Below, in pieces: positions 2,269 to 27,906 of a stretch of DNA of 64,000 nt. The stretch comes from an uncultured Bdellovibrionales bacterium (GTDB taxonomy: Bacteria; Patescibacteriota; Minisyncoccia; Moranbacterales; UBA1568). The DNA lies in the NCBI GenBank assembly GCA_964483635.1, contig CAZABS010000001.1:16692-80691 (forward strand). The letters run 5' to 3'. The notes under the pieces are model-generated. The model was not told the origin of the DNA and did no database searches. It was given only the letters and a program-made list of their open reading frames with translations. Both the position numbers and the translations under genes were made by a program. Within the stretch, counting starts at the first letter, position 1, and the number at the start of each line of letters is the position of its first letter.

Positions 2269-3164
2269 TACCGCCCAATTGCTTGCGCCCTGGACGCAGG
2301 GGTCTGCGGTAGGGTGCGGACGATCTTTAGATCGACGGTCAAACTCCCAAGAGCAGCCAATCGCGCTTCGATCATCTGAACATAGGCCGGCTCGATCTCG
2401 ACACCAATGCTGTTGCGTCCGGTCTCGACCGCCGCGAGTGTCGTGGTACCAGTACCGAGGAATGGATCTACGACGGTGTCACCCGCAAAGCTGAACATCC
2501 GAATGAGGCGGCGGGGAATCTCGATGGGATAGGGTGCTGGATGACCCTTGCGAAGCTGGCCGGTGACATCCGCCCAGACCGGCGCATACCATTTCATGTA
2601 GTCCTCGGTTTCGATGCGCGATCGACGCTCCATCTCTTGAGTGGGCTTGCGGTAGCCGCCTGGTTTCCGGAAGAAGAGAATATGCTCAATGTCGTTCTTG
2701 ACGATTCCGTTCGGGAGATTGGGTTTGCCGAGGAAACGAGAAGACCTGGAAGCCTCAAGTTTGATGTTGGCAACCTTGAGCCATCGAATAGGGGTCAAGT
2801 TGTCAAAGCCCAGCTTGCGTGCCCGTACTTGAAGATCGCCGGAGAGTGGCAAGACGTAGTGACGCCCACCAGCACGGCGTGAGACACACACGTCACCGAC
2901 AACACATGCGACGCGACCACCTGGCACGAGGATGCGCAGACATTCCGCCCACACCTTGTCGAGCTCGTCGAGAAAAACCTCATAGGAAGCGATATTCCCG
3001 AGCTGAGCGTCGTGATCGGGATAGGTCTTCAGTGAACCATACGGAGGACTGGTGCAAATGAGGTGGACACTCTCAGTAGTAATGGCCGCGAGCGAGCGAG
3101 CATCGCCCTCGTAGACCATGTGGTGGGTGAATCCAGCAGAGCGGCGTTTTCCCTGGTTTGGCAT
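2268..3164 (-). CDS. DNA methyltransferase, beta-class N4-cytosine/N6-adenine family
   Basis: TSPPY catalytic motif IV precedes DPFLGTGTT (FxGxG AdoMet motif I), the order typical of beta-class MTases in the N6_N4_Mtase family. Confidence 0.85.
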   Translation of the reverse strand: MPNQGKRRSAGFTHHMVYEGDARSLAAITTESVHLICTSPPYGSLKTYPDHDAQLGNIASYEVFLDELDKVWAECLRILVPGGRVACVVGDVCVSRRAGGRHYVLPLSGDLQVRARKLGFDNLTPIRWLKVANIKLEASRSSRFLGKPNLPNGIVKNDIEHILFFRKPGGYRKPTQEMERRSRIETEDYMKWYAPVWADVTGQLRKGHPAPYPIEIPRRLIRMFSFAGDTVVDPFLGTGTTTLAAVETGRNSIGVEIEPAYVQMIEARLAALGSLTVDLKIVRTLPQTPASRAQAIGR

Positions 3165-3467: not shown

Positions 3468-4964
3468 ATGGGCAAGACCGGTTCCACCAAGCGTGTCGGC
3501 ATCTGGATTCGGGTCTCTACCGAGGATCAGGTGCGGGGTGAGAGCCCCGAGACCCACGAGCGTAGGGCTCGGGCGTACGCCGAAGCCAAGGAGTGGTCGG
3601 TCGCCCAGATCTACCGCCTGGATGCCGTTTCTGGGAAGACCGTCAAGGAACACCCCGAAGCCAAGCGGATGCTCCAAGACATCCGAGCAGGTCATATCAC
3701 CGGTCTCATCTTCTCGAAGCTCGCCCGCCTCGCACGGAACACCAAGGAACTCCTGGAGTTCGCCGAGTTCTTCCGGGAAGAGGAAGCCGACCTCGTGTCT
3801 CTCGCGGAATCGATCGATACGTCGACTCCGGCCGGTCGGCTCTTCTACACCATGATCGCTGCCATGGCTCAGTGGGAGAGAGAGGAGATCGCCGAGCGGG
3901 TCGCCGCCTCCGTTCCGGTACGCGCCAAGATGGGGAAGCCCTTGGGCGGAGCCGCTCCCTTCGGGTACCAGTGGCTGGATGGCAAGCTCCTCCCGGATCC
4001 CAAGGAGGCTCCGGTTCGGAAGCTTCTCTACGAACTCTTCCGAGAGCATCAGCGGAAGAAGACGGTCGCAAGGCTCTTGAGTGAGAAGGGTTACCGCACC
4101 CGGAACGGCTCAGCCTTCTCCGATACCACGGTCGCCCGGCTTGTCCGTGATCCAACCGCCAAGGGAGTCCGCCGCGCCAACTACACCAAGACCACGAACA
4201 GTAAGAAAGCCTGGGAGCGGAAGCCCGAGAGCGACTGGGTACTCCACGAGATTCCCGCGATTGTCCCCGAGGATCTCTGGAACGAGTGCAATGCCATCTT
4301 GGATGCCCGGAAGGACACCGGGAAGCGTCCGGCCAAGAAGGTGACCCACCTCTTCTCGGGAGTGACCTATTGCCAATGCGGTAGCAAGATGTATGTACCC
4401 TCGAATACCCCGAAGTACGTCTGCACCCAGTGCCGGAACAAGATCCCAATCATTGATCTCGACGCCGTCTTTCATGAGCAGCTGAGGGGGTTCCTCTTCT
4501 CTCCCGAGGAACTGGCTGTTCATCTGCGGGCAGCCGACGGTGCGCTCCGGGAGAAGGAGGAACTCCTCCAGGTACTCTCCCTGGAACGCGGGAAGCTCAC
4601 CGGAAAGATCGAGCGGCTCCACGAACTCTACGAAGTCGGCTCCATCGACAAGCACGGCTTCGGGCTGAAGTACCGCCCGATGGCCGAGCGCCTGGCGCAG
4701 CTCGACGACGAGATCCCGAAGACCCATGCCGAAGTGGACGTCATGAAGATCGCCCACCTCTCCCAAGAAGAGATCCTGGCCGAAGCAAGGGATCTCTTCA
4801 CTCGTTGGCCAACCCTCCCGGGAGACGAGAAGCGCCGCATTGTCGAAACCATTACCGAACGGATCACTATCGGTAAGGATGACATTGAGATCGACCTCTA
4901 CTACGTCCCGCCGGGACTCGGTGAAACCAAAGCCCGTCCCATTTCTACTCCTTCTTTCAATTGA
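3468..4964 (+). CDS. Large serine recombinase (integrase type)
   Basis: N-terminal resolvase catalytic domain (VGIWIRVSTEDQ with the Ser nucleophile, and LIFSKLARLARN). A recombinase domain follows, then a C-terminal zinc-ribbon (CQCGSKMY...CTQCRNK) and a coiled coil. Total length is 498 aa. Confidence 0.9.
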   Translation: MGKTGSTKRVGIWIRVSTEDQVRGESPETHERRARAYAEAKEWSVAQIYRLDAVSGKTVKEHPEAKRMLQDIRAGHITGLIFSKLARLARNTKELLEFAEFFREEEADLVSLAESIDTSTPAGRLFYTMIAAMAQWEREEIAERVAASVPVRAKMGKPLGGAAPFGYQWLDGKLLPDPKEAPVRKLLYELFREHQRKKTVARLLSEKGYRTRNGSAFSDTTVARLVRDPTAKGVRRANYTKTTNSKKAWERKPESDWVLHEIPAIVPEDLWNECNAILDARKDTGKRPAKKVTHLFSGVTYCQCGSKMYVPSNTPKYVCTQCRNKIPIIDLDAVFHEQLRGFLFSPEELAVHLRAADGALREKEELLQVLSLERGKLTGKIERLHELYEVGSIDKHGFGLKYRPMAERLAQLDDEIPKTHAEVDVMKIAHLSQEEILAEARDLFTRWPTLPGDEKRRIVETITERITIGKDDIEIDLYYVPPGLGETKARPISTPSFN

Positions 4965-5430: not shown

Positions 5431-6327
5431 TCACCCGCACACGTACGCGTACGGACTCCCTCCGCCCATGCAGTGGCCAGGACATTGATTGAGGCGAACT
5501 GCACCACTTGCGCAACGCGGCTCCGGAGCACTGACTGGCGGGTTGAAGCCCCAGCAACCGCACGCTTGCATTCCGTAGCCAGGAGGATATCCAGACTGCG
5601 CCGGCGTGAAGCCGTCTCGAATTGACACCCACGATCCCTGATTCAAGAACTGCGCGATCCGAGGACTAACCTGGCTTTCGAAATCGTAGGCCTCCCGCTC
5701 GAAACGGTTCCGCCGATCCTGGCAGCCGCCGCACTCTACGTACTGTCGGCTGTAATCACACTTGAACCGATCGGTTCCGCTTGCCCGGTACTGGCGAATA
5801 TGAACGACCTCATGAGCAAGCGTTGAGGCTGTCGCCAAGGTATCCCCTTTGAGGGAGACATCAAGGTAGATCCGTCCGCGATCGGGAGCCATGCCGTGCG
5901 CTCCTTGGAGCGGGCACCACCGTGTCTGGACGCCGTTGAGCTCCCCAAGCTGGATGATGCCGGCCGAGGTCAGTGTGTTGATAGCCTGCACGATGAGGTG
6001 CTGATCATCGAGCCGTCCGTCCCAGTTCGAGCATCGGGCAATGACGATCCCCGTGACGGTTTGATACGGTCCGGTACAGGCCTGGGTGCCGTACGTCTCG
6101 ATCTGCTCCCGTGGTGTCAAGGGGATGTTGGGAACATTGGATCGGGTGACACAGGCGAGTTTCTTGGCAGCCTCACACTTGGCGTGACAGGTCGGCTCGA
6201 TGAACTCGACCGGCGGGAAGTCGGTGCGTATCCGGCACTGTCGGTGACAGTCGGTATCGCAGGATTCAGCCTGTGCCACCGTAACAGCGCCCGCAAAGAG
6301 CAGAGCGAGAGCAATTCGACGAAGCAT
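5431..6327 (-). CDS. Secreted cysteine-rich protein with an HExxH zinc-metallopeptidase-like motif
   Basis: Signal peptide MLRRIALALLFAGAVTVAQAES. Many Cys residues and an AHEVVHIRQY motif are present. Start is set at the internal Met; the ORF track extends to 6399. Confidence 0.45.
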   Translation of the reverse strand: MLRRIALALLFAGAVTVAQAESCDTDCHRQCRIRTDFPPVEFIEPTCHAKCEAAKKLACVTRSNVPNIPLTPREQIETYGTQACTGPYQTVTGIVIARCSNWDGRLDDQHLIVQAINTLTSAGIIQLGELNGVQTRWCPLQGAHGMAPDRGRIYLDVSLKGDTLATASTLAHEVVHIRQYRASGTDRFKCDYSRQYVECGGCQDRRNRFEREAYDFESQVSPRIAQFLNQGSWVSIRDGFTPAQSGYPPGYGMQACGCWGFNPPVSAPEPRCASGAVRLNQCPGHCMGGGSPYAYVCG

Positions 6328-6564
6328 GAGTTCCTCCAGTCGTGCGTTGCCGCCTGAAGCACCCTCTGCTGCCCTGACTCCGAGCAGTGTCACTGGCAAA
6401 TCTAATGCATTACCTCACGTGCTGTCTGCAGAAAACATGTGTCTGAACCCGGATCGCATCGCCGCGCTCGCCGCCATGCGACGCCTCCCTTGCGAAATGC
6501 ACTCGATGCGATCCCCGGACTGAGAGTAGAGAGGCAGGGTTCTGAACTATTCGCGCCTGACCCG

Positions 6565-7203
6565 TCAAGAAACTGCGGCGACCTGACCAAGTTGCTCGTG
6601 AAACAGCGAACAGTTCTTGAATATCGCGTAAAGGCCAAAGTATCCGAAATTGTAAGCCTCCTTATCGTCCACCATCGTCTTCGCGAGCTTAGAGATCATG
6701 AAAGGATGCAGCTCGAATGATGTTTGACGATCAAGCTGCGTATTCAACAGCAGAAGTCTCGCAATCCGAACCGTGGGAAGGTATCGACCGGGGCGGTTAG
6801 ACTCGCATTGCACAAAGTCTGCAAAAGCCCACCCGAATCCATAGGCGTACTTAAACAGATCTGGCTCTTTAGGCGTTATTTCGTACTCAAGGATGTAAGT
6901 CTTCACCCACATATTAACGCGCTTCCAGAACTGTGGCGGCTCTTCCTTCACTGAAACCGAAATTGCTACAAAGCGGTCAAGCATGACCATTAGTTCGTCA
7001 ACCAGCACACGCACATCATCTCGTTCCAATAGGATGTATGCGTCACGTGGGGAATACACGGATCCCGTTGATCGGCCGGCCGCGAGATCCTCCCCAATCT
7101 GCGTCGCAAGCGATGCTGCATCTGCTAGGGTGTCGGCAAAACCAGTAAACATGGCTTGCCATCGAATCTTTTCTTTTTCGGGTGTCATAAATAAAAAGGG
7201 CAC
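6565..7203 (-). CDS. Hypothetical protein
   Basis: Long ORF with protein-like composition; no recognisable motif. Confidence 0.35.
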   Translation of the reverse strand: MPFLFMTPEKEKIRWQAMFTGFADTLADAASLATQIGEDLAAGRSTGSVYSPRDAYILLERDDVRVLVDELMVMLDRFVAISVSVKEEPPQFWKRVNMWVKTYILEYEITPKEPDLFKYAYGFGWAFADFVQCESNRPGRYLPTVRIARLLLLNTQLDRQTSFELHPFMISKLAKTMVDDKEAYNFGYFGLYAIFKNCSLFHEQLGQVAAVS

Positions 7204-8062: not shown

Positions 8063-9007
8063 GTGGAGGCACCGGTGCCGCGTCTGAACGTTTTCGTGTC
8101 GGAAGAGCTGCACGATCTGATCGACAAGTGGCGCGGGCGCTTCAATTTGTCCGAGATATGTGCACGCGCACTGGAAGCAGAGCTTCGTGCCGTCGATATT
8201 GGAAAGGCAACCGACACACTCTTGAGTCGCGAAGGGCCGCGTTCTGAGTTCAGCAAACAGCTTCGGTCCCGACTTGGGTTGAGAGATGTCCTCATTGCCG
8301 AAACGGAACTAGTTGGCGAGCGGCTTCGGGAGCAATTGGGCAAACTGGCTGCAGCGTATGTAGACCAGTTCATCTCTGAGGGTGCGACGTTAGCTCTTGC
8401 AGGAGGAAAGCAGATTTGGGCGGTGGTGAACCAGCTACAACCGCGCAACGTTCTTGTTGCTCTCGCTGGAGTCGGATTCGCGAATGATTCGGAAGTTTTT
8501 GAAGCACACCCGAATACGAGTGTCACCATTGCGTGGCTCCGCTACCGCTCTGGATCTAAGGCGTATCGCGTGGGAGCAGCCGAGTTTTCCCAGTTGCTGT
8601 TTCCAATGGAAAATACGAAACAGAAGGTACGAATTGTTGTTGCGTCCTGTGCGCCGTTTGACACGAATTCGCCGTTCAGCGAACTACTCGGAACGGCAGC
8701 AGTCCGTTCGTTGGTAGAGGCGGGAGCAGTGGGTGACTTCTGTTACAACTTCTTTGATGCCGCTGGCGAATCCTTATTGCCGCCAATTGTCCCAGGGCTC
8801 GCGCGGTCACTAATCGACACAGAACACCTCCGCTCATTGGTCAATGATGACTCCGCGCATGTCTTACTTGTCGCCGGTGGTCGCGAGAAACATGACACGA
8901 TTGCACACACCATTCGGGCTCGACTGTGCAACGTACTTGTGACTAATAGAGAAACCGGAGAGTTCTTAATGTGCCTCGATCCTGATAAAGGTGTCGCACT
9001 AGCTTGA
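8063..9007 (+). CDS. SorC/DeoR-like regulator (putative sugar-binding effector domain) with an RHH-like N-terminus
   Basis: VLIAETELVGERLREQLGKLAAAYVDQFISEGATLALAGGKQIWAVV and a later LLVAGGREK resemble the SorC-family sugar-binding domain. The N-terminal 45 aa look RHH-like. Confidence 0.45.
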   Translation: MEAPVPRLNVFVSEELHDLIDKWRGRFNLSEICARALEAELRAVDIGKATDTLLSREGPRSEFSKQLRSRLGLRDVLIAETELVGERLREQLGKLAAAYVDQFISEGATLALAGGKQIWAVVNQLQPRNVLVALAGVGFANDSEVFEAHPNTSVTIAWLRYRSGSKAYRVGAAEFSQLLFPMENTKQKVRIVVASCAPFDTNSPFSELLGTAAVRSLVEAGAVGDFCYNFFDAAGESLLPPIVPGLARSLIDTEHLRSLVNDDSAHVLLVAGGREKHDTIAHTIRARLCNVLVTNRETGEFLMCLDPDKGVALA

Positions 9008-10611: not shown

Positions 10612-11178
10612 TCAGAGCAATCCTCGCTCCGCAAAGCTCACGCATGAGGGTCCAGCGACCACGAAGTGATCGAGCACCCGGATGTCGACGAGGGCGAGGG
10701 CTTGCTTGAGAGATTGAGTGAGAAGTTCGTCGGCTCGGCTCGGTTCAGCCACGCCGCTCGGATGATTGTGAGCGAAGACGACCGCTCCGGCATTGCGCTT
10801 GAGCGAGTGCTTCACCACTTCTCTTGGGTAGACGCTTGTCTGAGCGAGGGTTCCGCGGAAGAGTTCTTCCGAAGCGATGAGCCGGTTCTGTGAATCAAGG
10901 AAGAGGGCATGGAAGGCTTCATGCTCCATCCCGGCGAATACCGAGACGAGGTAGGAGCGCACCGCCACGGGTGAGGTGAGGATCTCCCTCCCCGAGAGCG
11001 CTTCGGCGTAGTAGCGCTTCATGAGCTCCCGGGCGGCGAGGAGCTTCCTCTGTGAAGGCGAAGCTTCGCCTCCGGCTTCGAAGAGATCTCCAAGGGAACG
11101 GGTAAGGAGGATACGTGCCCTCTCCATGCCTACGAGCTGTCCCAAGAGTTCGACGTTACTCATGCGTTCAAGATCCAT
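10612..11178 (-). CDS. radC: RadC-family JAB/MPN domain protein
   Basis: HNHPSG JAMM motif plus [13 protein letters not shown], typical of RadC/UPF0758. RadC genes are frequent in integrative and conjugative elements. Confidence 0.85.
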
Positions 11179-11316
11179 GTCGGTCTCCTTCTCAGTGATG
11201 AAAGTACCGACTTCATCTTGGAACGCAGTGCGCTTCTTGCCATGACGCGGAAAGGTGCTCGGGGTGCACCTCTCCCACGGCTATCTCACTCTCGTGAGAT
11301 TCCCTAGTCTGAGTGA

Positions 11317-12498
11317 ATGCCTCCCTCTGACATTTCTTTCTTCGCCAGGACCAACGCTCGATCGTCATCGCAGCCATTCGGCCTGAGACAACCCGACCGA
11401 CTGCTGCATGTCTACGTGATCGGAAAGACCGGCACGGGGAAGTCAACCCTCTTGGAAACCCTCGCTCGTAGCGACATCTTGGCTGGCCGAGGTTGTGCTG
11501 TCCTCGATCCACATGGAGACCTGGTGGATCGCCTCATGAATGCTGTACCCGCAGGGCAGCGAGAGCGGATCGTCTTCTTCGATGTCACCGATCTCAAAGA
11601 GCCCTACGGCTACAACCCGCTTCGGAGAGTCAGACCGGACAAGATCCCACTGGCGGCTTCTGGTCTCATGGAAGCCTTGAAGAAGCTGTGGAGCGAAGCT
11701 TGGGGCGTACGGATGGAACACATTCTCCGGAACGCTCTCTATACTCTCCTCGAATACGAGGGTGCGCGGCTTCCCGACATCCTGCGGCTCATCTCGGACG
11801 CAAGCTTCCGAGCGATGGTGGTGAAGTCGATCACCAACGAGCAGGTGAAGCGCTTCTGGCTTACCGAGTTTCCGCACTACAACCCGCGCTATCGCCAAGA
11901 GACGATTGCTCCCATCCAGAACAAGGTGGGCGCCTTCCTCGCTGACCCACGGCTTTACCGAATCTTCACCGGAGGAGAGGAGCTGCGTTTCCGGCGGATC
12001 ATGGACGAAGGCCGGGTGCTCCTCGTCAACCTCTCCCGGGGTGAGCTCGGTGAGGACAGCTCGAATCTCCTGGGGAGCCTTCTCGTAACGACTCTTTCTC
12101 TCGCGGCGTATTCACGTGGAGAGTGTCCCCGAGAAGAGCGCACCCCGTTCTTCATCTACCTCGATGAATTTCAACTCTTCACCACGCTCTCGACTGCCAA
12201 CATGATCTCCGAGATGCGAAAGTTCGGGATCGGACTGATCCTCGCACATCAACACTTAGGGCAGCTTGCTCCAGAGGTGCGACATGCTGTCCTGGGGAAC
12301 ATGGGGACATTGGTGACGTTCAGGATGGGCGGAGAGGATGCTGAGTTCTTTGCTCGTGAGTTCTCGCCCGAGTTCACGGCTTACGATCTGCTCTCCCTTC
12401 CCAACTATGACTGCTATGTCCGCCTCATGATCGGCGGTAGCCCCACTCGTCCCTTCAGTGCGACGACCCTTAACCCAGATCAAAACTTGCTGCCCTGA
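11317..12498 (+). CDS. FtsK/HerA/T4CP-superfamily P-loop ATPase (soluble, 393 aa)
   Basis: Walker A VIGKTGTGKST, then VLDPHGDL (DUF87/HerA-like DPHGEY block), Walker B FFIYLDEFQLF and a sensor ILAHQHLGQL (T4CP/TraG-D-like). No transmembrane segment. Confidence 0.7.
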   Translation: MPPSDISFFARTNARSSSQPFGLRQPDRLLHVYVIGKTGTGKSTLLETLARSDILAGRGCAVLDPHGDLVDRLMNAVPAGQRERIVFFDVTDLKEPYGYNPLRRVRPDKIPLAASGLMEALKKLWSEAWGVRMEHILRNALYTLLEYEGARLPDILRLISDASFRAMVVKSITNEQVKRFWLTEFPHYNPRYRQETIAPIQNKVGAFLADPRLYRIFTGGEELRFRRIMDEGRVLLVNLSRGELGEDSSNLLGSLLVTTLSLAAYSRGECPREERTPFFIYLDEFQLFTTLSTANMISEMRKFGIGLILAHQHLGQLAPEVRHAVLGNMGTLVTFRMGGEDAEFFAREFSPEFTAYDLLSLPNYDCYVRLMIGGSPTRPFSATTLNPDQNLLP

Positions 12499-12541
12499 GT
12501 TGTGGAAGCGTCACGGGAAACAAGAGAGGGAGGAGTGAACC

Positions 12542-13054
12542 ATGGGATACGTTGCAGCGACCACCGTCTTGTCGCATTGGAACCATCGCATCGACGGAAT
12601 GCAGCAATCCGCCAATGAGTTCTACACCGAGGTCGAGAGGGTGCTCGCGGTCCAGAACGTCGACAAGATCAAAGCCGAGCGGGTCAATCTCTCAGAAGGT
12701 GGCATCTTCACCGGGAAGCGCGAGTATCTCCAGATTAGAAGAGGTGAGCAGCTCTTCCATGTGTGCGCCGCTCCCTTTGGGAACGGTTTCTTCATCTCCT
12801 CCTGGCTCGGCGTGAAGGAGTCCGGCTTCTGGGCCTGGCTTGCCATGCTGCCCGGTATCGGCTTCTTCGTGCAGCGCTTCCTCAAGCCCCTCACGTACTA
12901 CAAGATCGATACCTCGCTCATGTTTCAGTCGATCACCCATGGCGCCATCATGGAAGTAGTGGACGCTCTCACTAAAGCCAAGGGACTGCGCTCCCTCACC
13001 GAGAATGAACGCAAGCCCGTGATGCGCGACTTCTTCGCCAATATCGGCGGGTAG
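12542..13054 (+). CDS. Hypothetical protein (170 aa) between the two ATPase paralogs
   Basis: ORF with possible hydrophobic segments; no motif recognised. Confidence 0.35.
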   Translation: MGYVAATTVLSHWNHRIDGMQQSANEFYTEVERVLAVQNVDKIKAERVNLSEGGIFTGKREYLQIRRGEQLFHVCAAPFGNGFFISSWLGVKESGFWAWLAMLPGIGFFVQRFLKPLTYYKIDTSLMFQSITHGAIMEVVDALTKAKGLRSLTENERKPVMRDFFANIGG

Positions 13055-13063
13055 AAGGCTCCC

Positions 13064-16000
13064 ATGATTCCGACCCTGGCTGAAGCCGTTACGGCGAGCT
13101 TCTACGCTTGGGAGATTCGGGGGAGAGGCTGGTGGCTCTCGGACTATCCGGTGGTCCTGGAGCCACCCTTTCGCCACTGCTTCATGCTGCCGTCTCTCGC
13201 CTCACCCCGCCACATCATTGACGACGGGAAGCGCCCAACCTTCCTGAGTTCGCTGGTCGAAGGAGTCAAGGACACCCTGGTCGGGAAGTCTGCGATCTCA
13301 CAAACGAATGAGGAGCCATTCGAGGAGCCCGAACCAGCAAGGGCCGAGAGGGCGAACTCGCGCGTGTCGCTCCGGCTCACAGTTCCGGTCGATTTCCGGC
13401 TGCGGCCTGAGGCCATCGCGCAGTTTCTCCGATCGCTTTCGACCACACTCTCACCTGTTGCCTTCGAGATCGTTGGACGCGCTGGAAAGGTCGCGATCCA
13501 AGTCACCTGTGCCGAGGTTGATGCCGCCCTCGTCGGAAGCCAGCTTGAAGCCTCAATCCCCGAAGCAGTGGTGCTTCATGATGATGATCTTCTTTCTGAA
13601 GCATGGGACGAGGAGGCGAAACATCTCGTGGTCGATTTCGGACTCTCGCATGAGTTCTTCCTCCCGCTCGGATCAGTGAGCGTTGGACTCGATCCGTTCG
13701 TCACTCTCATCCCAGCCCTGGCGGCGTCTAAAGAAGGCGAGATCCTTGTCTACCAGGTGCTCTTCGAGGGTGTACGCAATCCGTGGTCCTCGGCGATTAG
13801 GGAGGCGCTCGATGACGGAACAGGCGGCTCCATCATGGCGGATGCACCTGAGTTCCTGCCGCTCTCTCGGGAGAAGCTCCGTACTCCGCTTCATGCCGTC
13901 TCGCTGCGCGTCGCCGCTCAAGCAAGGTCGACGTCACGAGCCTGGGACTTGGTACGTTTGACCGGAGCGTTCATCAGGCAGTGCGGACGACCGGGATCGA
14001 ATGAACTCCTCCCCTTGGAGAACACGGACTTTCCGGATGAACTGCATGCAAGCTCCGTCTTGTGGCGCGAGACCTATCGCTCAGGGATGCTCCTCTCAGG
14101 AGAAGAGCTCGGTCTCTTCGTCCATCTCCCTGACGCGTCGGTGAAGCATCCGGGACTCATCCGGAGTATCGAGCGTACCAAAGCTCTTCCCAATGAAGCT
14201 CGGGGAAGGGAGTTCGTCCTCGGCGAAAACGTCCACCGCGGAGAGCGGATGGCCGCGACCATCGGCGAAGCCGAGCGGCTTTCGCACACCTGGATCATCG
14301 GCGCTTCGGGAGCCGGGAAGTCAACCCTGCTTCAGAGTCTCATCCTTCAGGATCTCGAACGAGGAAATGGGATTGTGGTGCTTGATCCGCATGGCGATCT
14401 CATCGACGACGTTCTCGCGCGGATGCCGAAGGAGCGCATTGACGACGTCATCCTCTTCGATCCGAGTGATACCGAACATCCGATCGGCTTCAATGTCCTC
14501 TCTGCGGGAAGCGAAATCGAACGCACTCTCTTAGCTTCCGATCTGGTCGGAGTGTTTCGACGGCTCTCGACGTCCTGGGGCGATCAGATGTCGTCGGTCT
14601 TGGGAAATGCGGTCCTCGCCATCCTTGAAAGTGAGCGAGGCGGGACACTGCTCGATCTACGTCACTTTCTCGTTGACGATCGATTCCGGAGAGAGTTTCT
14701 CGGGACAGTCGACGACGATGAGATCCGCTTCTTCTGGGAACGTGAGTACCCACTCATTGGTTCACGCTCGATCGGACCGATCCTCACGAGGCTTGATACC
14801 TTTCTCCGGCCCAAGGTGATCCGGCATATCGTGGGACAACGGGATGGAAAGCTCGATCTCGGAAGAGTCCTCTCGAAGCGCCAGGTGCTCCTCGCCAAGC
14901 TCTCGCATGGAGCGATCGGCGAGGAGAACAGTTACCTCATGGGAAGTCTCATCGTCGGGAAGCTCCTGGAGCTTGCCCTCGCGCGCCAGCAGCTCGCCAA
15001 GGAAGAACGCGCCCCATTCTTCCTCTATGCCGACGAATTCCAGCATTTCCTGACGCCTACGGTCGAGACGCTTCTTTCCGGAGCAAGGAAGTACGCTCTC
15101 GGCGTGACCCTGGCTCATCAGACCCTTGGTCAGCTCGCCCAAGCGCCGAAAGTTCTCTCAGCTCTCTCAGGGAATGCCTACACCCGCATTGCATTCCGGA
15201 CGAGTGAGGAAGATGCGCGGAGAGTAGCTGAAGGGTTCTCCTTCTTCGAAGCTTCGGACCTCGTCAGACTCCGGCGAGGCGAAGCCATTGTCCGTATGGG
15301 TTCGTCGGAGAACGACTTCAACCTGAAGACACTACCGCCGAAGCTGATTGCGTCCAATGAACGAGGTAACCGGCTAGCGCGTCTCTCGCGCGAGCGCTAT
15401 GGAATACCGGTAGCCGAAGTACGCGAGGCGCTCGCCAATGCTCGTGAGCCGATTCGTTCGTCCGAGGACGCGGTTCCGCAAGCCACAGCAGAGGAAACGC
15501 CGCCTGCTCCGACACCGATGAGCATCGAGCGGAAGCCGCTCGCACGACGCAAGGTGCTCGCTGACACTCCGCCGGAACCTCTCGGCCACGGAGGTCAGGA
15601 ACACAAGTATCTCCAGCATCTCGTGAAGCGCCTGGCTGAGGAGCGAGGCTTTCGAGCCATCATCGAAGACGACGCTGGCGAAGGAAAAACCGATGTCGTC
15701 TTGAAGAAAGACACGCTCACTATCGGTTGTGAGATCTCGGTGACGACCGATGTCGAGCATGAACTCGGGAACCTCCGGAAGTGCCTTTCGGCTGGATTCG
15801 GGGGGATTGTCGCGATCGTCCCAGACAAGCGGCGCCGCGAGAAGTTGGCGAAGCGAGCTGCCGAGGAAGCGATTGCCGCTCGGGTTATCTCACCCGAGGA
15901 GATCGTGAGCTTCCTCGATGAAGTGGCGGTCGGCTCCGCGACTGCCGAATCAACCGTACGCGGCTACAAGGTCAAGGTGAAGCGGCAGGCGATGAGTCAG

Positions 16001-16072
16001 GGTGACCTCGCCGGCAGGCGCTCGGCTGTGGCCGAGGTGATCGCGCGGTCAATCGGGCGGAGCGAGGGTTGA
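13064..16072 (+). CDS. Large (1002 aa) FtsK/HerA/T4CP-superfamily ATPase with a ~370-aa unknown N-terminal domain and a C-terminal YraN/Hjc-like PD-(D/E)xK nuclease-like tail
   Basis: IGASGAGKSTLL, VVLDPHGDL, FFLYADEFQHF and TLAHQTLGQL are paralogous to the 393-aa ATPase. The C-terminus (ERGFRAIIEDDAGEGKTDVVLKKDTLTIGCEISVT) follows the E...G-x-D-hhh...hhh-E-h-(K/S) layout of YraN/Hjc-like nucleases. Confidence 0.7.
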   Translation: MIPTLAEAVTASFYAWEIRGRGWWLSDYPVVLEPPFRHCFMLPSLASPRHIIDDGKRPTFLSSLVEGVKDTLVGKSAISQTNEEPFEEPEPARAERANSRVSLRLTVPVDFRLRPEAIAQFLRSLSTTLSPVAFEIVGRAGKVAIQVTCAEVDAALVGSQLEASIPEAVVLHDDDLLSEAWDEEAKHLVVDFGLSHEFFLPLGSVSVGLDPFVTLIPALAASKEGEILVYQVLFEGVRNPWSSAIREALDDGTGGSIMADAPEFLPLSREKLRTPLHAVSLRVAAQARSTSRAWDLVRLTGAFIRQCGRPGSNELLPLENTDFPDELHASSVLWRETYRSGMLLSGEELGLFVHLPDASVKHPGLIRSIERTKALPNEARGREFVLGENVHRGERMAATIGEAERLSHTWIIGASGAGKSTLLQSLILQDLERGNGIVVLDPHGDLIDDVLARMPKERIDDVILFDPSDTEHPIGFNVLSAGSEIERTLLASDLVGVFRRLSTSWGDQMSSVLGNAVLAILESERGGTLLDLRHFLVDDRFRREFLGTVDDDEIRFFWEREYPLIGSRSIGPILTRLDTFLRPKVIRHIVGQRDGKLDLGRVLSKRQVLLAKLSHGAIGEENSYLMGSLIVGKLLELALARQQLAKEERAPFFLYADEFQHFLTPTVETLLSGARKYALGVTLAHQTLGQLAQAPKVLSALSGNAYTRIAFRTSEEDARRVAEGFSFFEASDLVRLRRGEAIVRMGSSENDFNLKTLPPKLIASNERGNRLARLSRERYGIPVAEVREALANAREPIRSSEDAVPQATAEETPPAPTPMSIERKPLARRKVLADTPPEPLGHGGQEHKYLQHLVKRLAEERGFRAIIEDDAGEGKTDVVLKKDTLTIGCEISVTTDVEHELGNLRKCLSAGFGGIVAIVPDKRRREKLAKRAAEEAIAARVISPEEIVSFLDEVAVGSATAESTVRGYKVKVKRQAMSQGDLAGRRSAVAEVIARSIGRSEG

Positions 16073-16170: not shown

Positions 16171-19100
16171 CTATTGAACGTACGTACGAAGGAAGTATCC
16201 GTAACCCGCGTTATGCCATGTCCCCGCAGGTGGAAGTCGTTCGAAGCGCGTAAGGTATGTGCCCCCCTGTGGTCCAACGCCACCCGCCAGCCCGGGTTGG
16301 GTGGCCACATTCGTCTCATCTGCTCGGAACCCAACGAGGAGGTGCTGACCAGCAGTTACCGCCAATCCATCACCCGGCAAGTGAATGGTCGTCCATGGAA
16401 CATTCATGAAGCCGGATGGGCTGATGTATTGCGACGTATTAGGCGGGAAACTGAGGAACGGAGTCGATGTCGTTACGAGCGACGATGTGGCTGGCACGTC
16501 GAATCCTGGGCCCGGAATGCCGTAGAAACTGACGGTCACGCTTCCAGTCGACGAGACCGTCGAACCCGTCAATATTTTCACGTCGATCTGCTTGAGCTGC
16601 CCGCTATGACCAACCTGGAACGCCTGTGCGATCTCTGTACCGTCAAACTTGTATGTCCCCGTCGTCACGTCAAAACCAACATTGAAGCCCTGCGCTATAT
16701 AGGCGGTTTCAGAGGGTGATGGTGAGTAGTTGAAATCCACCGCAAGAGGCGCAGGTGATCCACTGAGCGTCACGATCCAAGCTTCCGTCTGTCCGCTTGG
16801 ATTCAATCCCCAACCGACGATAGTCCGGCCGTCATCTGAAATACCCGTCGCCGCCGCCAGGAACCACCCCGCGAGACTGACGCCGTGATCGACTTCCAGA
16901 ACGTCTTTCAGACGACGTACGCCAATGCCCTCGATCCACATGAAGGCTTCGATACCAGCCGGCGTGCCCGGAGCACTTCCCTCTCCGACGACGACCTTGC
17001 CGTCGGCGGAAACGCCGTAGGCGATGCTTTGAGTATGTCCACTGGCGAGTCCCAATCCTTGCATCCCGCCCGCTGCAGTCCAGCGGAAGGCTTCGATCGA
17101 ACTCAGCCCGCTTCTGCTCCATCCAACGACGGTGTTGCCGTCAGCAGAGACGCCGTATGCCGTTGCATCATAGCCGCCGCCGGGGAGTTCGCCTAGAGAT
17201 TGCATACCGCCAGCCAGAGTCCAGCGAAACGCCTCGCTTCCCAGCGCAGTAAGCCCCGCGCCAACCACAATCCTCCCGTCTCTCGATACGGCACGGGCCT
17301 TACTAGAGAAACCTCCACCACTGAGATCGCCCAAGCCTTGCATGCCAGCGTCCTCAGTCCAACGGAAAGCCTCACTGATGCCCGTGTATCCCACCACGGC
17401 TTTGCCGTCGGCGGATACGCCATACGCCTCGCTATATGGATCGCCTCCGACAACGAGATAACCCAGGCCCTGCATGCCACCGCTCTCGGTCCAACGGAAA
17501 GCTTCAAGCCCTGAGCCTCTGTTTCCTCGTCCTACGACGGTCTTTCCATCCGACGATACGGCGTATGCCACTGTGTCGAAATACGCGCCACTGAGTTGCC
17601 CTAGTCCTTGCATGCCACCGCTTTTCGTCCAACGAAAGGCTTCGTTCCTTCGGCCATCGATTTCGCTTTCGCCCACGACCGTTTGACCGTCGCTTGAAAC
17701 CCCGAAAGCCCGGCTAAACACATTCCCTCCGGGCAAGTCGCCGAGTCCCGTGAATACTGCGATCTTCGGTATGCCAACTCCTGGCGGAGTCAACATAAAT
17801 CCGCGCGCCTGCCCATTGAGGCGACCGACTCCCACGATGTGGCCGACATTGTTGATCGCAGCCGCGCTATCGAGCAGCCATCCACTGCCTACGTCGATCC
17901 GCGTGTTGAGCTCGATCATCGTGCCGTCTTGCCAAACGAAGGCGCCGCCACGTACCGCATTCCCATCAACGATCCCCGTGTATCCAACTACCTGACCGAC
18001 GTTGTTGATCCCGTAGGCATAGCTTCCATAGCGAGTCGCACCAGCGAGCGAATTGATATCGCGCGTGACGCCGTTCTCCCAAAGGAAGGCGTGCTGGTAG
18101 TCGCAGCCGGTGGCCGCGTCCGTCGTCGATCGCGCATACCCCACTACTTGGCCGCGCTCGTTGATGGCGGTCGGGACGATGTCGGCACCGGCTACCAATG
18201 GGGTGAGCTTGCTTACCACTCCGTTGCGGAAGATAAAGCCGGTGATTCCGTCGAATCCATAGACACATCCGAATGGAATGAACTGCGAGCCGAATCCGAC
18301 CACGTTGCCCCCGCTGTTGACGGCGGTCGCGCTTCCAACTGGAATGAGGGGCGAGAGGTCGCTGAGGTCGGTGACGCTCCCACCATGAAAAACGAAAGCG
18401 TGGTCGCGACCCGTCGTCGTTGACGTAAGGGAGCCAGCGATATGACCAGCGTTGCTGATGCTCGCAGCTTCCGCGTGACCATCTGGATTGATGCGTAGGT
18501 CTGACATCGCACCGTTAACGTACAAGAACGGGCGCCACGCCTGATACACCGGTGTTGTTGTCATGACGTGCGATGACCCGACAACCTGACCACTGTTGTT
18601 GATGCTCGTTGCCATGGTTCCACTATTCGGGGATTCGAACCCAAGCTCTCCGAGGTCGAGGAGTATTCCTCCGCTCCAGAGAAAGGCTCTGCTTCCTCCG
18701 TTCAATATGTAACTGCCAACGACTTGCCCTCCGTCGTTGATTGAAGCCGGAGTGACGTCGCCCAAATCGGTGACGGTATAGCGCGACGGGATCACAAGAG
18801 GAGGTGGTACGACCGCATCGACCGTGACCGACCGTGTCGTCGTTCGCGCGCTGCCGCTGTTGTCGGTGACGGTGAGCGTTATGGTGTAGGTTCCAGGGCT
18901 CCCGTAGTACACGTCATGCGATGGCAGTGCGGTGTAAGTACCCTCGCCCTTTCCGGCATCCCAGACGTAGCTGACGATGGATCCATCAGGATCAGTGCTC
19001 CCGCTTGCATCGAGGTGTACTGCCTGATTTGCACTGATGGTCGACGGGATAGCCGTAAACGATGCGACAGGTGGGTGGTTGACGGTGATCGTTCGCGTGA

Positions 19101-20280
19101 ACGGATACGAAGTGGCACCACGGTCGTCGGTGACCCGCAGGGTGACCGCCTTGAGACCGGGGGACGTGTATGCGAACGCGATCGGCGCCGAGGAGGTGGT
19201 GCTGAACGGACCACCTTCACCGAGATCCCATCCATAGCTCTTGATGGTCCCGTTTCCGTCTGGGTCGGAACTTCCCGACGGGTCGAAACTCACCTCCTCG
19301 CCGACGTTCACCGTAAACGTGTTTGCGGATCCTGCACTCACCGAGAAGGAGGCGATGGGGGGTAGATTTGCGTGGCTACACCGAGCGTTGGTCAGAGCAA
19401 GAATGGATGAAGCGATGTTCTCGTAGACACGTTGCTCCACTACGCTCGGGTTGAGATACTCGTCTCCCGGAAACAGGTACGCCTCTAAGAACCCATGCCG
19501 CCAAGAGTCTGCCACCTTGAGTCCGTAAAAGTCCAGCCATGGATCGGTGTAAGGATCCTCTGTGTTTGCTCGCAAGGAAGGAGCTAGGAATTTGATTACC
19601 CGCTTGAGTGAGGCGTTGAAGATCACTTGGTCATCCGGGGTTCCGAGGGGCATACCGTCACCAATGCGAAGGTGAGGCACGACCGACCTCGAGATCCGCC
19701 AGTCAGGACTGGCAACAGCAACGATTGCAATCGCCGACTTGTCTGATCCGGGGATGCGATCGACAGCTGGATTCACAAAGTAGTTTCCTTGTGAGTGCGC
19801 CACCACAACAACAGTGCGTCCGGCGTTGATGAGCTCGATGTACTTGGTCTTATGATCATTAATAACTTGTGCGGTTTCTATTGGTGGAACTGCCAAGGCG
19901 TCCGTGATGAGATCAAGAACCTCGCTCAGTCGCCCGGATTGGATTGCCTGCAGCGATCGAATGATTCCCCATGGAGACGCCAGGCTGAAACCTTCCTGCT
20001 TCCCTACCTCCTGAATGTCAGAAATCAGATTATCTTTGGGGTTGTAAGCGATAACGGAGAAGTCAAGTCGGCTGGAATCCACTCCGAGATCGGCACGTTC
20101 GTCTACCCACGCCTTGAACCGCGCTTCGAGCTCGTCTCGTGTTTTCTCGGCATCGTGTCTTCTGTTAGCCACACCATTGCCGAACACAACATTCGTCACA
20201 CCGCATCCGGCAGGGACCACCTGAGCCGAGACCGAACCCAAGAGCGTTGTGAGGACAACCAACAGCACCAGTCGTAGCAT
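16171..20280 (-). CDS. Giant secreted multidomain protein: lipase/esterase alpha/beta-hydrolase, PKD-like domains and tandem HAF-family extracellular repeats
   Basis: Signal peptide MLRLVLLVVLTTLLGSVSAQ. Nucleophile elbow VVAHSQGN (GxSxG). PKD-like PDGSIVSYVWDAGKGEG and PDGNGTIKSYGWDLGEG. At least 5 tandem ~45-aa repeats EAFRWT..GGMQGLG......AYGVSADG..VVG, with earlier HAFLW/GAFVW-type units (HAF repeat family). Confidence 0.8.
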   Translation of the reverse strand: MLRLVLLVVLTTLLGSVSAQVVPAGCGVTNVVFGNGVANRRHDAEKTRDELEARFKAWVDERADLGVDSSRLDFSVIAYNPKDNLISDIQEVGKQEGFSLASPWGIIRSLQAIQSGRLSEVLDLITDALAVPPIETAQVINDHKTKYIELINAGRTVVVVAHSQGNYFVNPAVDRIPGSDKSAIAIVAVASPDWRISRSVVPHLRIGDGMPLGTPDDQVIFNASLKRVIKFLAPSLRANTEDPYTDPWLDFYGLKVADSWRHGFLEAYLFPGDEYLNPSVVEQRVYENIASSILALTNARCSHANLPPIASFSVSAGSANTFTVNVGEEVSFDPSGSSDPDGNGTIKSYGWDLGEGGPFSTTSSAPIAFAYTSPGLKAVTLRVTDDRGATSYPFTRTITVNHPPVASFTAIPSTISANQAVHLDASGSTDPDGSIVSYVWDAGKGEGTYTALPSHDVYYGSPGTYTITLTVTDNSGSARTTTRSVTVDAVVPPPLVIPSRYTVTDLGDVTPASINDGGQVVGSYILNGGSRAFLWSGGILLDLGELGFESPNSGTMATSINNSGQVVGSSHVMTTTPVYQAWRPFLYVNGAMSDLRINPDGHAEAASISNAGHIAGSLTSTTTGRDHAFVFHGGSVTDLSDLSPLIPVGSATAVNSGGNVVGFGSQFIPFGCVYGFDGITGFIFRNGVVSKLTPLVAGADIVPTAINERGQVVGYARSTTDAATGCDYQHAFLWENGVTRDINSLAGATRYGSYAYGINNVGQVVGYTGIVDGNAVRGGAFVWQDGTMIELNTRIDVGSGWLLDSAAAINNVGHIVGVGRLNGQARGFMLTPPGVGIPKIAVFTGLGDLPGGNVFSRAFGVSSDGQTVVGESEIDGRRNEAFRWTKSGGMQGLGQLSGAYFDTVAYAVSSDGKTVVGRGNRGSGLEAFRWTESGGMQGLGYLVVGGDPYSEAYGVSADGKAVVGYTGISEAFRWTEDAGMQGLGDLSGGGFSSKARAVSRDGRIVVGAGLTALGSEAFRWTLAGGMQSLGELPGGGYDATAYGVSADGNTVVGWSRSGLSSIEAFRWTAAGGMQGLGLASGHTQSIAYGVSADGKVVVGEGSAPGTPAGIEAFMWIEGIGVRRLKDVLEVDHGVSLAGWFLAAATGISDDGRTIVGWGLNPSGQTEAWIVTLSGSPAPLAVDFNYSPSPSETAYIAQGFNVGFDVTTGTYKFDGTEIAQAFQVGHSGQLKQIDVKILTGSTVSSTGSVTVSFYGIPGPGFDVPATSSLVTTSTPFLSFPPNTSQYISPSGFMNVPWTTIHLPGDGLAVTAGQHLLVGFRADETNVATQPGLAGGVGPQGGTYLTRFERLPPAGTWHNAGYGYFLRTYVQ

Positions 20281-27822: not shown

Positions 27823-27906
27823 GCTGTGGTGGCGGAATTGGTATACGCGCTAGCCTTAGGAGCTAGTACCCGCAAGGGTTTGAGAGTTCGAGTCTCTCCC
27901 ACAGCA
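27823..27906 (+). tRNA. tRNA-Leu (anticodon UAG), class II with a long variable arm
   Basis: Acceptor GCTGTGG/CCACAGC. D-arm GCGGAATTGGTATACGCGC is nearly identical to the E. coli tRNA-Leu D-arm. Anticodon stem CTAGC/GCTAG with loop CTTAGGA gives anticodon TAG. Variable arm ACCCGCAAGGGTT. T-arm GAGAGTTCGAGTCTCTC. Discriminator A; CCA is not encoded. Confidence 0.9.

Follow-up and report, generated by a model that had tools for sequence, protein, structure and literature searches.

Introduction

To our knowledge, all type IV secretion and conjugation systems have VirB4 as their signature ATPase. HerA–NurA provides a precedent for a motor and a nuclease acting together in end resection, and in tectiviruses, FtsK/HerA-type packaging ATPases act with small membrane proteins. 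TraB of Streptomyces is FtsK-like and has transmembrane (TM) segments of its own, along with a wHTH domain for clt recognition; we know of no nuclease in TraB and of no TraB outside the mycelial actinomycetes.

ICETh1 of Thermus thermophilus is a tRNA-integrated element of approximately 15 kb with 47-bp repeats, and it does not replicate once excised (PMC5365140). The element has no mating-pore genes; its TdtA is a membrane-bound hexameric ATPase of the HerA/FtsK type, and it also carries a PF01555 methylase and a nuclease required for transfer (PMC5365140).

Here, a 64,000-nucleotide stretch of DNA from an uncultured bacterium (the window) was analysed. Three of its genes, encoding ATPase-S, a small hydrophobic protein (sm) and ATPase-L, form a genuine and widespread module that has apparently not been described so far.

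Results and discussion

Organization of the locus

A RadC-like JAB protein (188 aa; Pfam RadC E 9e-43) was found to be encoded at 10612-11178 on the minus strand, divergently from ATPase-S (11317-12498, plus strand; 393 aa), a P-loop ATPase of the TrwB/VirD4-HerA class. ATPase-S is followed on the same strand by sm (12542-13054), a conserved orphan of 170 aa, the middle of which forms a hydrophobic segment or hairpin, and by ATPase-L (13064-16072; 1002 aa). An earlier interpretation of the window made without database searches (the sequence-only reading) had described RadC followed by a pair of ATPases, and all of these ORFs were present. The intergenic region between radC and ATPase-S (11179-11316) contains a block conserved in an alignment of five related loci; this block includes an inverted repeat, AGGTGC-N7-GCACCT (11253-11271), and is possibly an operator or another regulatory site. 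A sigma-70 consensus promoter was sought in this region and was not found.

The composition of the module was determined from 83 loci containing L. In 71 of them, sm was located immediately 5' of L and in the same orientation, with a median gap of 7 nt. S lay no more than 10 kb from L in 34/83 loci; in 15, S, sm and L were contiguous. RadC adjoins the module in the closest relatives of the window locus (L004, L009, L091 and L092) and was present in just 9/83 loci overall. RadC, which the sequence-only reading had named ahead of the ATPases, is an accessory, lineage-specific neighbour; the core partner, obligate upstream of L, is sm.

Paralogous ATPases

In a BLASTP comparison, ATPase-S aligned with residues 402-759 of ATPase-L over 368 aa with 38% identity (E 1e-69), and the alignment spanned the Walker A, VLDPHGDL, YLDEFQ and AHQxLGQL blocks. 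This similarity far exceeds chance, and the proposal that the two proteins are paralogues of the FtsK/HerA/T4CP superfamily was borne out. In a set taken from other genomes (34 S and 83 L proteins), median identity was 49% between S proteins, 60% between L proteins and 36% between S and L. Because S and L formed separate clades and the nearest neighbour of every S was another S, the duplication is old. Walker A was intact in 34/34 S homologues, as were Walker A and the DE motif in 83/83 L homologues. Both ATPases are presumably hexameric DNA-dependent motors.

HMM comparisons covering DUF87/HerA, TrwB and TraG-D_C gave weak matches to type IV coupling protein (T4CP) and DUF87 families. ATPase-S matched TrwB_AAD_bind (E 7.5e-10) and DUF87 (E 1.2e-6); the motor domain of ATPase-L (14246-15343, aa ~395-760; Walker A GASGAGKST, Walker B YADEFQ) matched TrwB_AAD_bind at a similar level (E ~1e-9 for both proteins), T4SS-DNA_transf, DUF87 and TraG-D_C, all weakly. 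When an alignment profile was compared with the PDB, TrwB (1e9r) ranked first (E 1e-9), followed by DptH, HerA and IcmO/DotL. The top PADLOC model was mad8 for both S (E 3.5e-18) and L (E 2.6e-18), over the ATPase core. No segment of ATPase-S exceeded a KD19 of 1.05 and no TM segment was detected, which fits a soluble protein, as the sequence-only reading had held. The KD19 maximum of ATPase-L (1.63) lies within a confidently folded part of its N-terminal domain. An N-terminal hydrophobic helix that could act as a TM anchor was sought by hydropathy in both ATPases and was absent from both.

Terminal domains of ATPase-L

The sequence-only reading had pointed to an N-terminal extension of ~370 aa and a C-terminal segment in ATPase-L, and both are conserved domains: the order NTD-ATPase-CTD was identical in 88/88 L homologues (loci fetched from genomes and metagenomes, counting the window copy). 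The N-terminal domain (13064-14179, aa 1-372; Pfam DUF8128), previously regarded as unknown, is by its modelled structure a VirB4 N-terminal domain. It matched VirB4 and not HerA, and at the sequence level, no similarity to VirB4 (TrwK) was detectable. The linker that follows the motor (15344-15568, aa ~761-835) is of low complexity and rich in Ala, Arg, Glu and Pro; it varies in length and sequence, and the corresponding alignment columns, 800-930, are gap-rich and poorly conserved.

The C-terminal domain (15569-16072, aa 836-1002) is PD-(D/E)xK nuclease-like (restriction-endonuclease-like), the alpha-beta-beta-beta-alpha-beta core fold being present in the model; after the fold come a conserved beta-hairpin (RGYKVKV) and a helix. 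H847, E868, D877, E890 and K906 were invariant, with D877 and E890 on the expected strands. The conserved acidic and Lys residues that the claim of a nuclease tail called for were thus found in the homologues. In the (D/E)xK motif, the canonical Lys is replaced by Ser, Gly, Ala or Cys (E890-x-S892 in the window). Because this position is occupied by S, G, A or C and the helix that comes next carries an invariant lysine, K906, the lysine may have relocated. The invariant residues of this domain are of the catalytic type and suggest that it cleaves DNA.

The small hydrophobic partner

Comparison of sm with Pfam, PADLOC, NCBIfam and PHROG gave no match, and none of its 369 homologues has a name. 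Its hydrophobic insert is located between the SwWL and TYY motifs. KD19 of the insert exceeded 1.6 in 64/79 homologues, often with two TM-like helices, and the insert of the window protein is less hydrophobic (KD19 1.29). In R388, the gene order is likewise VirB3 followed by VirB4, 2 nt apart. Since sm lies directly 5' of L and usually contains TM-like segments, it occupies the place of VirB3; similarity between sm and TrwM/VirB3 was not detectable at the sequence level. It was tentatively concluded that S-sm-L is a conserved module with its origin in type IV secretion ATPases.

Association with serine-recombinase islands

A large serine recombinase (LSR) gene was found within 10 kb of L in 45/83 loci, including that of the window (3468-4964, plus strand; 498 aa; Pfam Resolvase E 1e-33, Recombinase E 2e-17). 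In 23 loci, the LSR gene lies directly 3' of L on the same strand, and the window LSR clusters by homology with recombinases that adjoin L in other genomes. Pairwise distances of L correlated with those of the adjacent LSR (r = 0.81) and of sm (r = 0.79), and shared host phylogeny could explain part of the co-divergence of L and LSR. Several LSR-bearing elements split comM, and its halves bound the element. Many serine-recombinase islands are frequently packed with defence genes and interrupt this competence gene. In the window, the module lies on an island of 57-59% GC in a host of 46% GC, and a tRNA-Leu gene adjoins.

Comparison of related elements indicated which genes are constant. The window and its sister element L091 both have an LSR (88.5% nucleotide identity) and the RadC-S-sm-L block (79.8%), and their intervening and downstream genes differ. 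One Aridibacter genome holds two copies that have only sm-L-5'LSR in common (88.7% identity). In seven of the 83 loci, a Cas4-like PDDEXK_1 nuclease gene and a SWIM protein gene lie immediately 5' of S; in two compact elements of this kind, L029 and L049, the Cas4-like/SWIM/S/sm/L block is constant and the remaining genes differ and look like cargo. The module may be regarded, with some reservation, as the constant part of serine-recombinase integrative islands. Because it is tied to the LSR and constant in the islands, a mobile-element function is at least as well indicated as defence of the HerA–NurA type.

Neighbours and distribution

The other neighbours vary by locus. Those of the defence type comprised many methylases (mad2-like in 4 loci), SIR2, Gabija and PglX; transfer-type neighbours were ArdC (6 loci) and Replic_Relax (4 loci) in addition to RadC. 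The window island itself carries an NsnA-like gene, a PF01555 methylase (MTase, 2268-3164), PIN_12 and TIR genes.

Species-level genomes with a member of the L family numbered at least 519, and the profile of the N-terminal domain of L matched 2,652 protein clusters (50% identity). The family extends over many bacterial phyla with very different cell envelopes, Patescibacteria included. No full-length L homologue was present on 72,556 sequenced plasmids, where the nearest relative of the ATPase domain is a T4CP from an actinobacterial T4SS cluster with a Replic_Relax gene. The architecture, which the sequence-only reading did not recognise, was indeed absent from PADLOC, Pfam and the literature searched, save for Pfam DUF8128. 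The family is almost confined to uncultured environmental lineages, one cultured carrier being Chitinophagaceae bacterium LGM1 (CP075895.1, locus L081), and this is why the module has been overlooked.

Possible functions of the module

The explanation preferred here, which is itself provisional, is that the module is a membrane-tethered DNA motor–nuclease serving as the backbone of serine-recombinase islands, probably for DNA donation. By analogy with VirB4 and VirB3, the VirB4-like domain of L, which would form a ring ATPase, may dock onto sm at the cytoplasmic membrane. The flexibly tethered PD-(D/E)xK domain would cleave DNA, and soluble S would act in the manner of a coupling protein as an accessory or substrate-recruiting motor. 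After excision of the island by the recombinase, the module would process its DNA and push it out; such donation would be pore-independent and distinct from classical conjugation, with the TdtA ATPase and NurA nuclease of Thermus ICETh1 as its model. An extended form of this idea is rather doubtful, namely that S-sm-L is a self-contained, pore-independent DNA exporter that, together with the LSR, makes up a minimal self-transmissible island in more than ten phyla, including Patescibacteria, free of any classical conjugation apparatus and probably feeding the DNA-uptake systems of recipients.

Several observations count against donation. No VirB3 homology was detectable in sm, nor any VirB4 homology in the sequence of the N-domain, and the window sm is weakly hydrophobic. 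S was not found within 10 kb of L in 49/83 loci, nor was an LSR in 38/83. The top PADLOC match is a defence component, mad8, the neighbourhoods are rich in methylases, and NsnA-like, PIN and TIR genes are present on the window island. The absence of full-length homologues from sequenced plasmids points in the same direction.

The main rival is defence or exclusion, a possible function, although an unlikely one on balance. In that case, an island-borne cassette, selfish or beneficial, would encode a membrane-tethered motor-nuclease that intercepts DNA entering from phages, plasmids or transformation at the inner membrane, moves along it and cleaves it, with S as a second sensor or motor. The mad8 component of MADS is the top PADLOC match of both ATPases (E ~1e-18), the neighbours listed above include defence genes in the window and elsewhere, and a membrane anchor would suit the detection of DNA entry; recombinases are also reported to adjoin defence systems frequently. 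However, there was no effector swapping, the architecture being constant throughout the L homologues. It is the module that is constant in the islands and the other genes that vary, and the module is co-oriented with the recombinase, with operon-like spacing and co-divergence. One genome holds two copies, and no cognate methylase or immunity gene was found at a fixed position among the loci. Beyond mad8 homology, the module is absent from the 5027 models of PADLOC. The other mad genes are missing from the window: ten other ORFs of its island gave no specific mad match, with no other mad component ranking best, and the MTase matched generic Type II MTase models at E 1e-57 versus E 2e-12 for mad2.

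A quite improbable alternative is intracellular maintenance or processing of the island, in which the module would resect the excised circle or make it linear so that it can replicate or recombine, like HerA–NurA and with the Cas4-like and SWIM proteins as partners, or would kill or cure cells losing the element. This agrees with the end-resection precedent of HerA–NurA, with the Cas4-like/SWIM pair next to S and with L029 and L049, in which no replication initiator was recognisable. Nevertheless, this pair is limited to 7/83 loci, and the hydrophobic sm and VirB4-like docking domain indicate a membrane site that repair-type processing does not need. HAS-barrel and NurA are absent, and none of the 25 commonest Pfam families of neighbours was NurA.

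Ordinary conjugation, with S and L as type IV coupling proteins and a relaxase and T4SS nearby or in trans, is very improbable. Homologues are labelled by NCBI as 'type IV secretory system conjugative DNA transfer family protein', T4CP families are matched weakly in Pfam and NCBIfam, the nearest plasmid relative is a T4CP, and Replic_Relax lies near 4 loci. However, S and L scored far below the cut-offs of curated T4CP models in NCBIfam (39.5 vs 366 for SXT_TraD; 38.9 vs 250 for CD1115), and L scored 29.3 bits with the VirB4 model TIGR00929 (cut-off 643.1), the Walker A region alone being matched. Both ATPases lack a TM anchor at the N-terminus, and nuclease tails and VirB4-like N-domains are not known from coupling proteins. 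The 25 commonest Pfam families of 149 non-redundant neighbours in the 10-kb flanks comprised no relaxase, VirB6/8/9/10/11 or pilin family, and the ATPase family spans phyla with very different envelopes. The sequence-only reading had offered ordinary coupling proteins as an alternative and had seen no relaxase or mating-pore genes nearby; the latter observation was extended to the homologues, and the former idea is disfavoured. Finally, a prophage-borne, PRD1-like packaging ATPase with small membrane proteins is hardly credible: despite the tectivirus precedent, matches of S and L to phrog_5156 (E ~1e-50) and ATPase-domain relatives in large Bacillus phages, phage records cover at most 35% of L, just 2 of 2.9 million viral contigs contain a relative of L compared with the species genomes counted above, so that phages are essentially free of the family, and genes for capsids or other virion parts were not recurrent among the neighbours.

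In this module, a VirB4-like N-domain occurs independently of any T4SS. It is joined to a nuclease in one protein, whose companions are a soluble paralogue and the small hydrophobic sm, and the module may represent a new way for islands to move or restrict DNA. If it moves DNA, this would explain the spread of many serine-recombinase islands without conjugation genes and would generalise the mechanism of Thermus 'transjugation'. If its role is defence, it would be a motor-nuclease of a new, membrane-anchored type. Either reading provides a function-testable handle on Pfam DUF8128.

Comparison with known systems

The module lies outside the T4CP, VirB4, HerA–NurA and MADS families. T4CPs (TrwB/VirD4/TraD/TraG) are the best sequence class for the ATPase domains of both S and L; unlike them, S and L have no TM anchor at the N-terminus and no relaxase or T4SS partner, and L carries VirB4-like and nuclease domains. 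With VirB4/VirB3 (TrwK/TrwM of R388), L shares a VirB4-type N-domain preceding the ATPase; sm is placed like VirB3, with no similarity to TrwM detected in sequence. The motor of L is nearer to TrwB in sequence and L adds a C-terminal nuclease and a soluble paralogue.

In HerA–NurA, Sir2–HerA and DUF4297–HerA, a motor is paired with a nuclease or effector, as here; the DUF87/HerA matches are weak (15 bits with the HerA NCBIfam model, cut-off 970). In contrast to HerA–NurA, the nuclease is a fused PD-(D/E)xK domain, and there is a hydrophobic partner and a link to a recombinase. MADS is an eight-gene operon, mad1-mad8, that includes the mad2 methylase; in the window, mad8-like homology alone is found, and mad2-like methylases lie near 4 of the loci. 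The mad8 model, of ~314 positions, lacks both a VirB4-like and a nuclease domain.

By gene content and description, ICETh1 with TdtA–NurA is likewise a small integrative element without mating-pore genes, and it combines an FtsK/HerA-superfamily ATPase, a nuclease and a PF01555 methylase, as does the window island. TdtA is membrane-bound, and a membrane site is proposed for S-sm-L; the ICETh1 nuclease is a separate protein of the NurA type, and no VirB4-like domain or sm-like partner has been reported for that element. With Streptomyces TraB, the module shares the concept that one membrane-associated FtsK-superfamily motor suffices to move integrative DNA (PMC5365140).

Organization of the module and domains of ATPase-L

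The four ORFs claimed in the sequence-only reading were present as described: RadC at 10612-11178 on the minus strand (Pfam RadC, E 9e-43) and, from ORF calls on the plus strand, ATPase-S (393 aa, 11317-12498), the 170-aa protein sm (12542-13054) and ATPase-L (1002 aa, 13064-16072). Because the S/sm and sm/L gaps were 43 nt and 9 nt, respectively, these last three genes look like a single operon, divergent from radC. The two ATPases, which had been taken for paralogues, shared 38% identity (E 1e-69) when ATPase-S was compared with residues 402-759 of ATPase-L, and the alignment spanned all motifs listed in that reading; their ATPase domains formed two separate old clades. No hydrophobic segment was found in ATPase-S, in line with its description as soluble.

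The radC/S intergenic region contained a conserved non-coding block (11253-11271) with the inverted repeat AGGTGC-N7-GCACCT; of the related loci, L091 and L092 kept this block, and L004 and L009 had a weaker form of it. It may serve as an operator or some other cis site. Promoter and terminator scanning gave no signal exceeding the shuffled expectation, and the Rfam search matched tRNA-Leu alone.

In an alignment of 26 homologues (45-82% identity), ATPase-L was found to comprise three conserved blocks, namely an N-terminal domain (NTD), a motor and a C-terminal domain (CTD), and a variable Ala/Arg/Glu/Pro-rich linker (approximately aa 761-835). This three-domain architecture was identical in 88 of 88 ATPase-L proteins. 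The AF2 model of the CTD (aa 836-1002; pLDDT 82) had an alpha-beta-beta-beta-alpha-beta core, and Pfam searches with individual family members gave weak matches to Mrr_cat (9 of 25) and PDDEXK_9 (7 of 25). It was concluded from the model that the predicted fold is PD-(D/E)xK. Residues H847, E868, D877, E890 and K906 were invariant in 87 homologues from different genomes, and Q851, E900, N903 and C907 were conserved in 86 of the 87. The canonical-lysine position (S892) was occupied by S, G, A or C, and the missing lysine is probably supplied from the following helix. Judging from these residues, the catalytic site seems functional, and the nuclease-like C-terminus recognized earlier would then be an active nuclease.

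The motor was nearest in sequence to the TrwB coupling protein (E 1e-9), with DptH, HerA and DotL as the next closest, and its Walker residues were invariant. The NTD (aa 1-372) corresponded to Pfam PF26449/DUF8128 in the precomputed annotation of homologues. When its AF2 model (pLDDT 83, pTM 0.83) was searched with Foldseek, the best twelve matches were all chains of TrwK, the VirB4 protein of plasmid R388 (E 3e-6 to 5e-4). Because no other P-loop ATPases were among the matches, the modelled NTD appears to match the N-terminal domain of VirB4 and not the VirB4 motor. Sequence homology between the NTD and TrwK was not detected with hhalign.

Pairing of sm with ATPase-L

Loci with ATPase-L homologues in other genomes were fetched, and their ORFs were called and clustered, giving 83 non-redundant loci. 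The sm gene was located immediately upstream of the ATPase-L gene on the same strand in 71 of them, with a median gap of 7 nt; in 10 more, the sequence ended before the region upstream of L. The sm-L pairing was shown to be obligate. Neither Pfam, PADLOC, NCBIfam nor PHROG assigned sm to a family, and its homologues were all unnamed. A central hydrophobic insert, often with two TM-like helices, was present in 64 of 79 homologues and was shorter and weaker in the sm protein of the window. In R388, the VirB3 gene lies 2 nt upstream of the VirB4 gene, the same position that sm occupies relative to L; hhalign detected no homology between sm and TrwM, the VirB3 protein of this plasmid. The sole PDB matches of the sm profile, to GPCR TM helices, were compositional and were rejected.

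Association of the module with integrative elements

ATPase-S was encoded within 10 kb of L in 34 of the 83 loci, and S, sm and L were contiguous in 15. A large serine recombinase (≥300 aa) was found within 10 kb of L in 45 loci and directly downstream of L on the same strand in 23. Also recorded were N-terminal (11 loci) and C-terminal (4 loci) fragments of comM, RadC and tyrosine integrase (9 loci each), ArdC (6 loci) and, immediately upstream of S in 7 loci, a Cas4-like nuclease together with a SWIM protein. In L013, L015, L017, L029 and L049, the genes upstream of S encoded a ~270-aa Cas4-like PDDEXK_1 nuclease, in which Cys residues cluster at the C-terminus, and a ~300-aa SWIM zinc-finger protein; they stood back-to-back, adjoining S and divergent from it, so that the module here is extended to five genes.

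The comM fragments flanked sm-L elements, the N-terminal piece lying beside the recombinase and the C-terminal piece at the far end; therefore, many of these elements were inserted in comM near the NPCPCG motif. The split was at approximately codons 334-352, and the target was the same across several phyla (L005, L011, L013, L019, L029, L038, L040, L049, L062, L068 and others).

Several results point to the module being part of the element backbone and not cargo. Two copies in one Aridibacter chromosome were alike only in sm, in L and in the 5' half of the recombinase gene (88.7% over 4.3 kb). Among 15 sm-L-recombinase triples, the distances of L correlated with those of the recombinase (r = 0.81) and of sm (r = 0.79); shared host ancestry may contribute to the former correlation. 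In the comM-bounded loci L029 and L049, the Cas4-like/SWIM/S/sm/L genes, the recombinase and an HTH regulator were constant, and the remaining genes, which look like cargo, differed: one locus had an OLD-type ATPase, an M23 peptidase and an IS, and the other had radical-SAM and RES-like genes. The recombinase of the window (3468-4964, plus strand, 498 aa) had Resolvase and Recombinase domains and clustered with the recombinases found beside L elsewhere. When the window was compared with its sister element L091 (L 82% identical), the recombinase region was 88.5% and the RadC-S-sm-L block 79.8% identical at the nucleotide level, whereas the genes between these two parts and those after L differed. 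The Pfam and PADLOC results for 149 non-redundant neighbours and the lack of full-length L in plasmid and phage records, both given below, were counted toward the same view. The module was shown to be linked to serine-recombinase integrative elements.

Between the recombinase and RadC, the window encoded two unassigned proteins on the minus strand (5431-6399, 322 aa; 6565-7203, 212 aa) and a SorC/DeoR-like regulator with a Sugar-bind domain (8063-9007, plus strand). Judged by length, order and orientation, L091 had similar counterparts of 312 aa, 215 aa and 397 aa, the last with a faint match to Sugar-bind. These proteins may belong to the backbone of the window/L091 sub-lineage.

The island in the window

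The GC content was 57-59% in the left 27 kb of the window (1-27900) and 44-48% in the adjoining 30 kb (27900-59000), with the sharp boundary at tRNA-Leu (27823-27907). The low-GC part carried the core genes pcrA/uvrD (43977-46262), ubiA-like (46354-47988), comM (50660-52177) and pnp (55410-57590). Therefore, the left 27 kb is foreign DNA, in the form of a single island or several, and the module lies on a horizontally acquired island. Insertion into comM was ruled out here, the gene being intact. Searching for repeats at the island ends gave no convincing att sites, and comparison with L091 revealed a mosaic backbone with no clean ends.

Just left of the serine recombinase, three minus-strand genes together resemble a cassette for restriction or defence: a DUF262/GmrSD_N protein (181-1368; PADLOC NsnA (Menshen), E 3.6e-58; also PD-T4-2_A), an unassigned 288-aa ORF (1402-2268) and a Type II-like DNA methylase (2268-3164; PF01555). 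The region from the module to tRNA-Leu held genes for a PIN_12 protein (23624-24688, minus strand) and a TIR_2 protein (24988-26280, plus strand; PADLOC candidate PDC-S66, E 5.8e-15), which probably represent additional defence cargo. A minus-strand gene (16171-20280) converged on the end of L. Its 1369-aa product looks secreted and has PKD domains as well as DUF3466 repeats; the gene contained approximately five internal 138-nt repeats, and L091 had different genes at this place.

In the low-GC region by tRNA-Leu, three minus-strand ORFs of 1033 aa (27957-31058), 1047 aa (31688-34831) and 699 aa (39217-41316) had no Pfam match at E ≤ 1e-5 and lay in a stretch of strong negative GC skew. A second GC-rich patch (0.55-0.58) inside low-GC host sequence, at 59000-62000, could be another acquired segment.

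Distribution of ATPase-L relatives

At least 519 species-representative genomes, nearly all MAGs, encoded relatives of L; they came from phyla including Acidobacteriota, Bacteroidota, Planctomycetota, Binatia, Nitrospirota, Desulfobacterota, Bacillota (Desulforudis), Pseudomonadota and several Patescibacteria. The NTD profile matched 2,652 clusters at 50% identity, 609 of them at E ≤ 1e-30. Homologues were publicly annotated as 'type IV secretory system conjugative DNA transfer family protein' or 'hypothetical'. Neither the 72,556 plasmids nor the 50,697 phage records searched contained full-length L. The 70 plasmid records that matched did so in the ATPase core alone (≤42% of L); they were mostly haloarchaeal and actinobacterial T4CP-like genes and were rejected as module homologues. 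An uncharacterised phage protein family, phrog_5156 (824-position profile), matched S and residues 268-793 of L (E ~1e-50), and ATPase-domain relatives occurred in the large Bacillus phages G, 0305phi8-36, CP-51 and JL.

Possible role and comparison with known systems

Processing and export of excised island DNA is tentatively proposed as the likeliest role of the module, by analogy. L would form a ring-shaped motor held at the membrane by docking of its VirB4-like domain onto the hydrophobic sm, the tethered CTD nuclease would cut DNA, and S would help as a coupling-type motor.

The main rival, a membrane-anchored motor-nuclease restricting incoming DNA, is somewhat less likely. In its favour, such a fusion has a defence-like logic, and the module is related to mad8, the ATPase of the MADS defence system. 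The neighbourhoods were also rich in defence genes: in a Pfam census of 149 non-redundant neighbours, which were highly heterogeneous, DNA methylases were the commonest class, and PADLOC detected one Gabija system and PglX alongside methylases, mad2-like ones occurring in 4 loci. However, this explanation is weakened by an architecture that does not vary, by the place of the module in the backbone and by its coupling to the recombinase. A repair- or maintenance-type role is improbable, more so than export or defence. That the ATPases are ordinary coupling proteins of a conjugative element is very improbable, since relaxase, VirB6/8/9/10/11, pilin and other MPF families were all absent from the 25 most frequent Pfam families of the 149 neighbours, and curated cut-offs were missed by a wide margin; the sequence-only reading had seen no relaxase or mating-pore genes near the module. 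Viral packaging is the least likely role, with relatives on just 2 of 2.9 million viral contigs and coverage of L in phage records never exceeding 35%.

For DNA export, the closest functional precedent, by analogy, would be ICETh1 of Thermus, an integrative element of ~15 kb that lacks mating-pore genes and, once excised, does not replicate (PMC5365140). To 'push' DNA, it needs TdtA, a membrane-bound hexameric HerA/FtsK-type ATPase, together with an adjacent nuclease; recipients take the DNA up by their own competence machinery (PMC5365140). ICETh1 carries a PF01555 methylase (PMC5365140), as does the island in the window. Export without envelope-spanning parts would fit the spread of the module over very different cell envelopes.

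Each known family considered has defining features that the module lacks. Its resemblance to MADS was limited to mad8-like homology, no other mad genes being found on the island, and membership was rejected. Unlike T4CPs, it has no TM anchor, relaxase or T4SS; unlike VirB4, it has no MPF genes; and its scores for both were below threshold. HerA-NurA differs in having a HAS-barrel and NurA, both of which the module lacks. No published description of the S-sm-L module was found in the literature searched (DUF8128, VirB4-like/nuclease/serine-recombinase and comM/LSR topics). The module works most like a VirB3/VirB4-type membrane ATPase joined to a restriction-type nuclease, and it was rated as a new variant of the T4SS/HerA-FtsK ATPase-nuclease modules of mobile elements.
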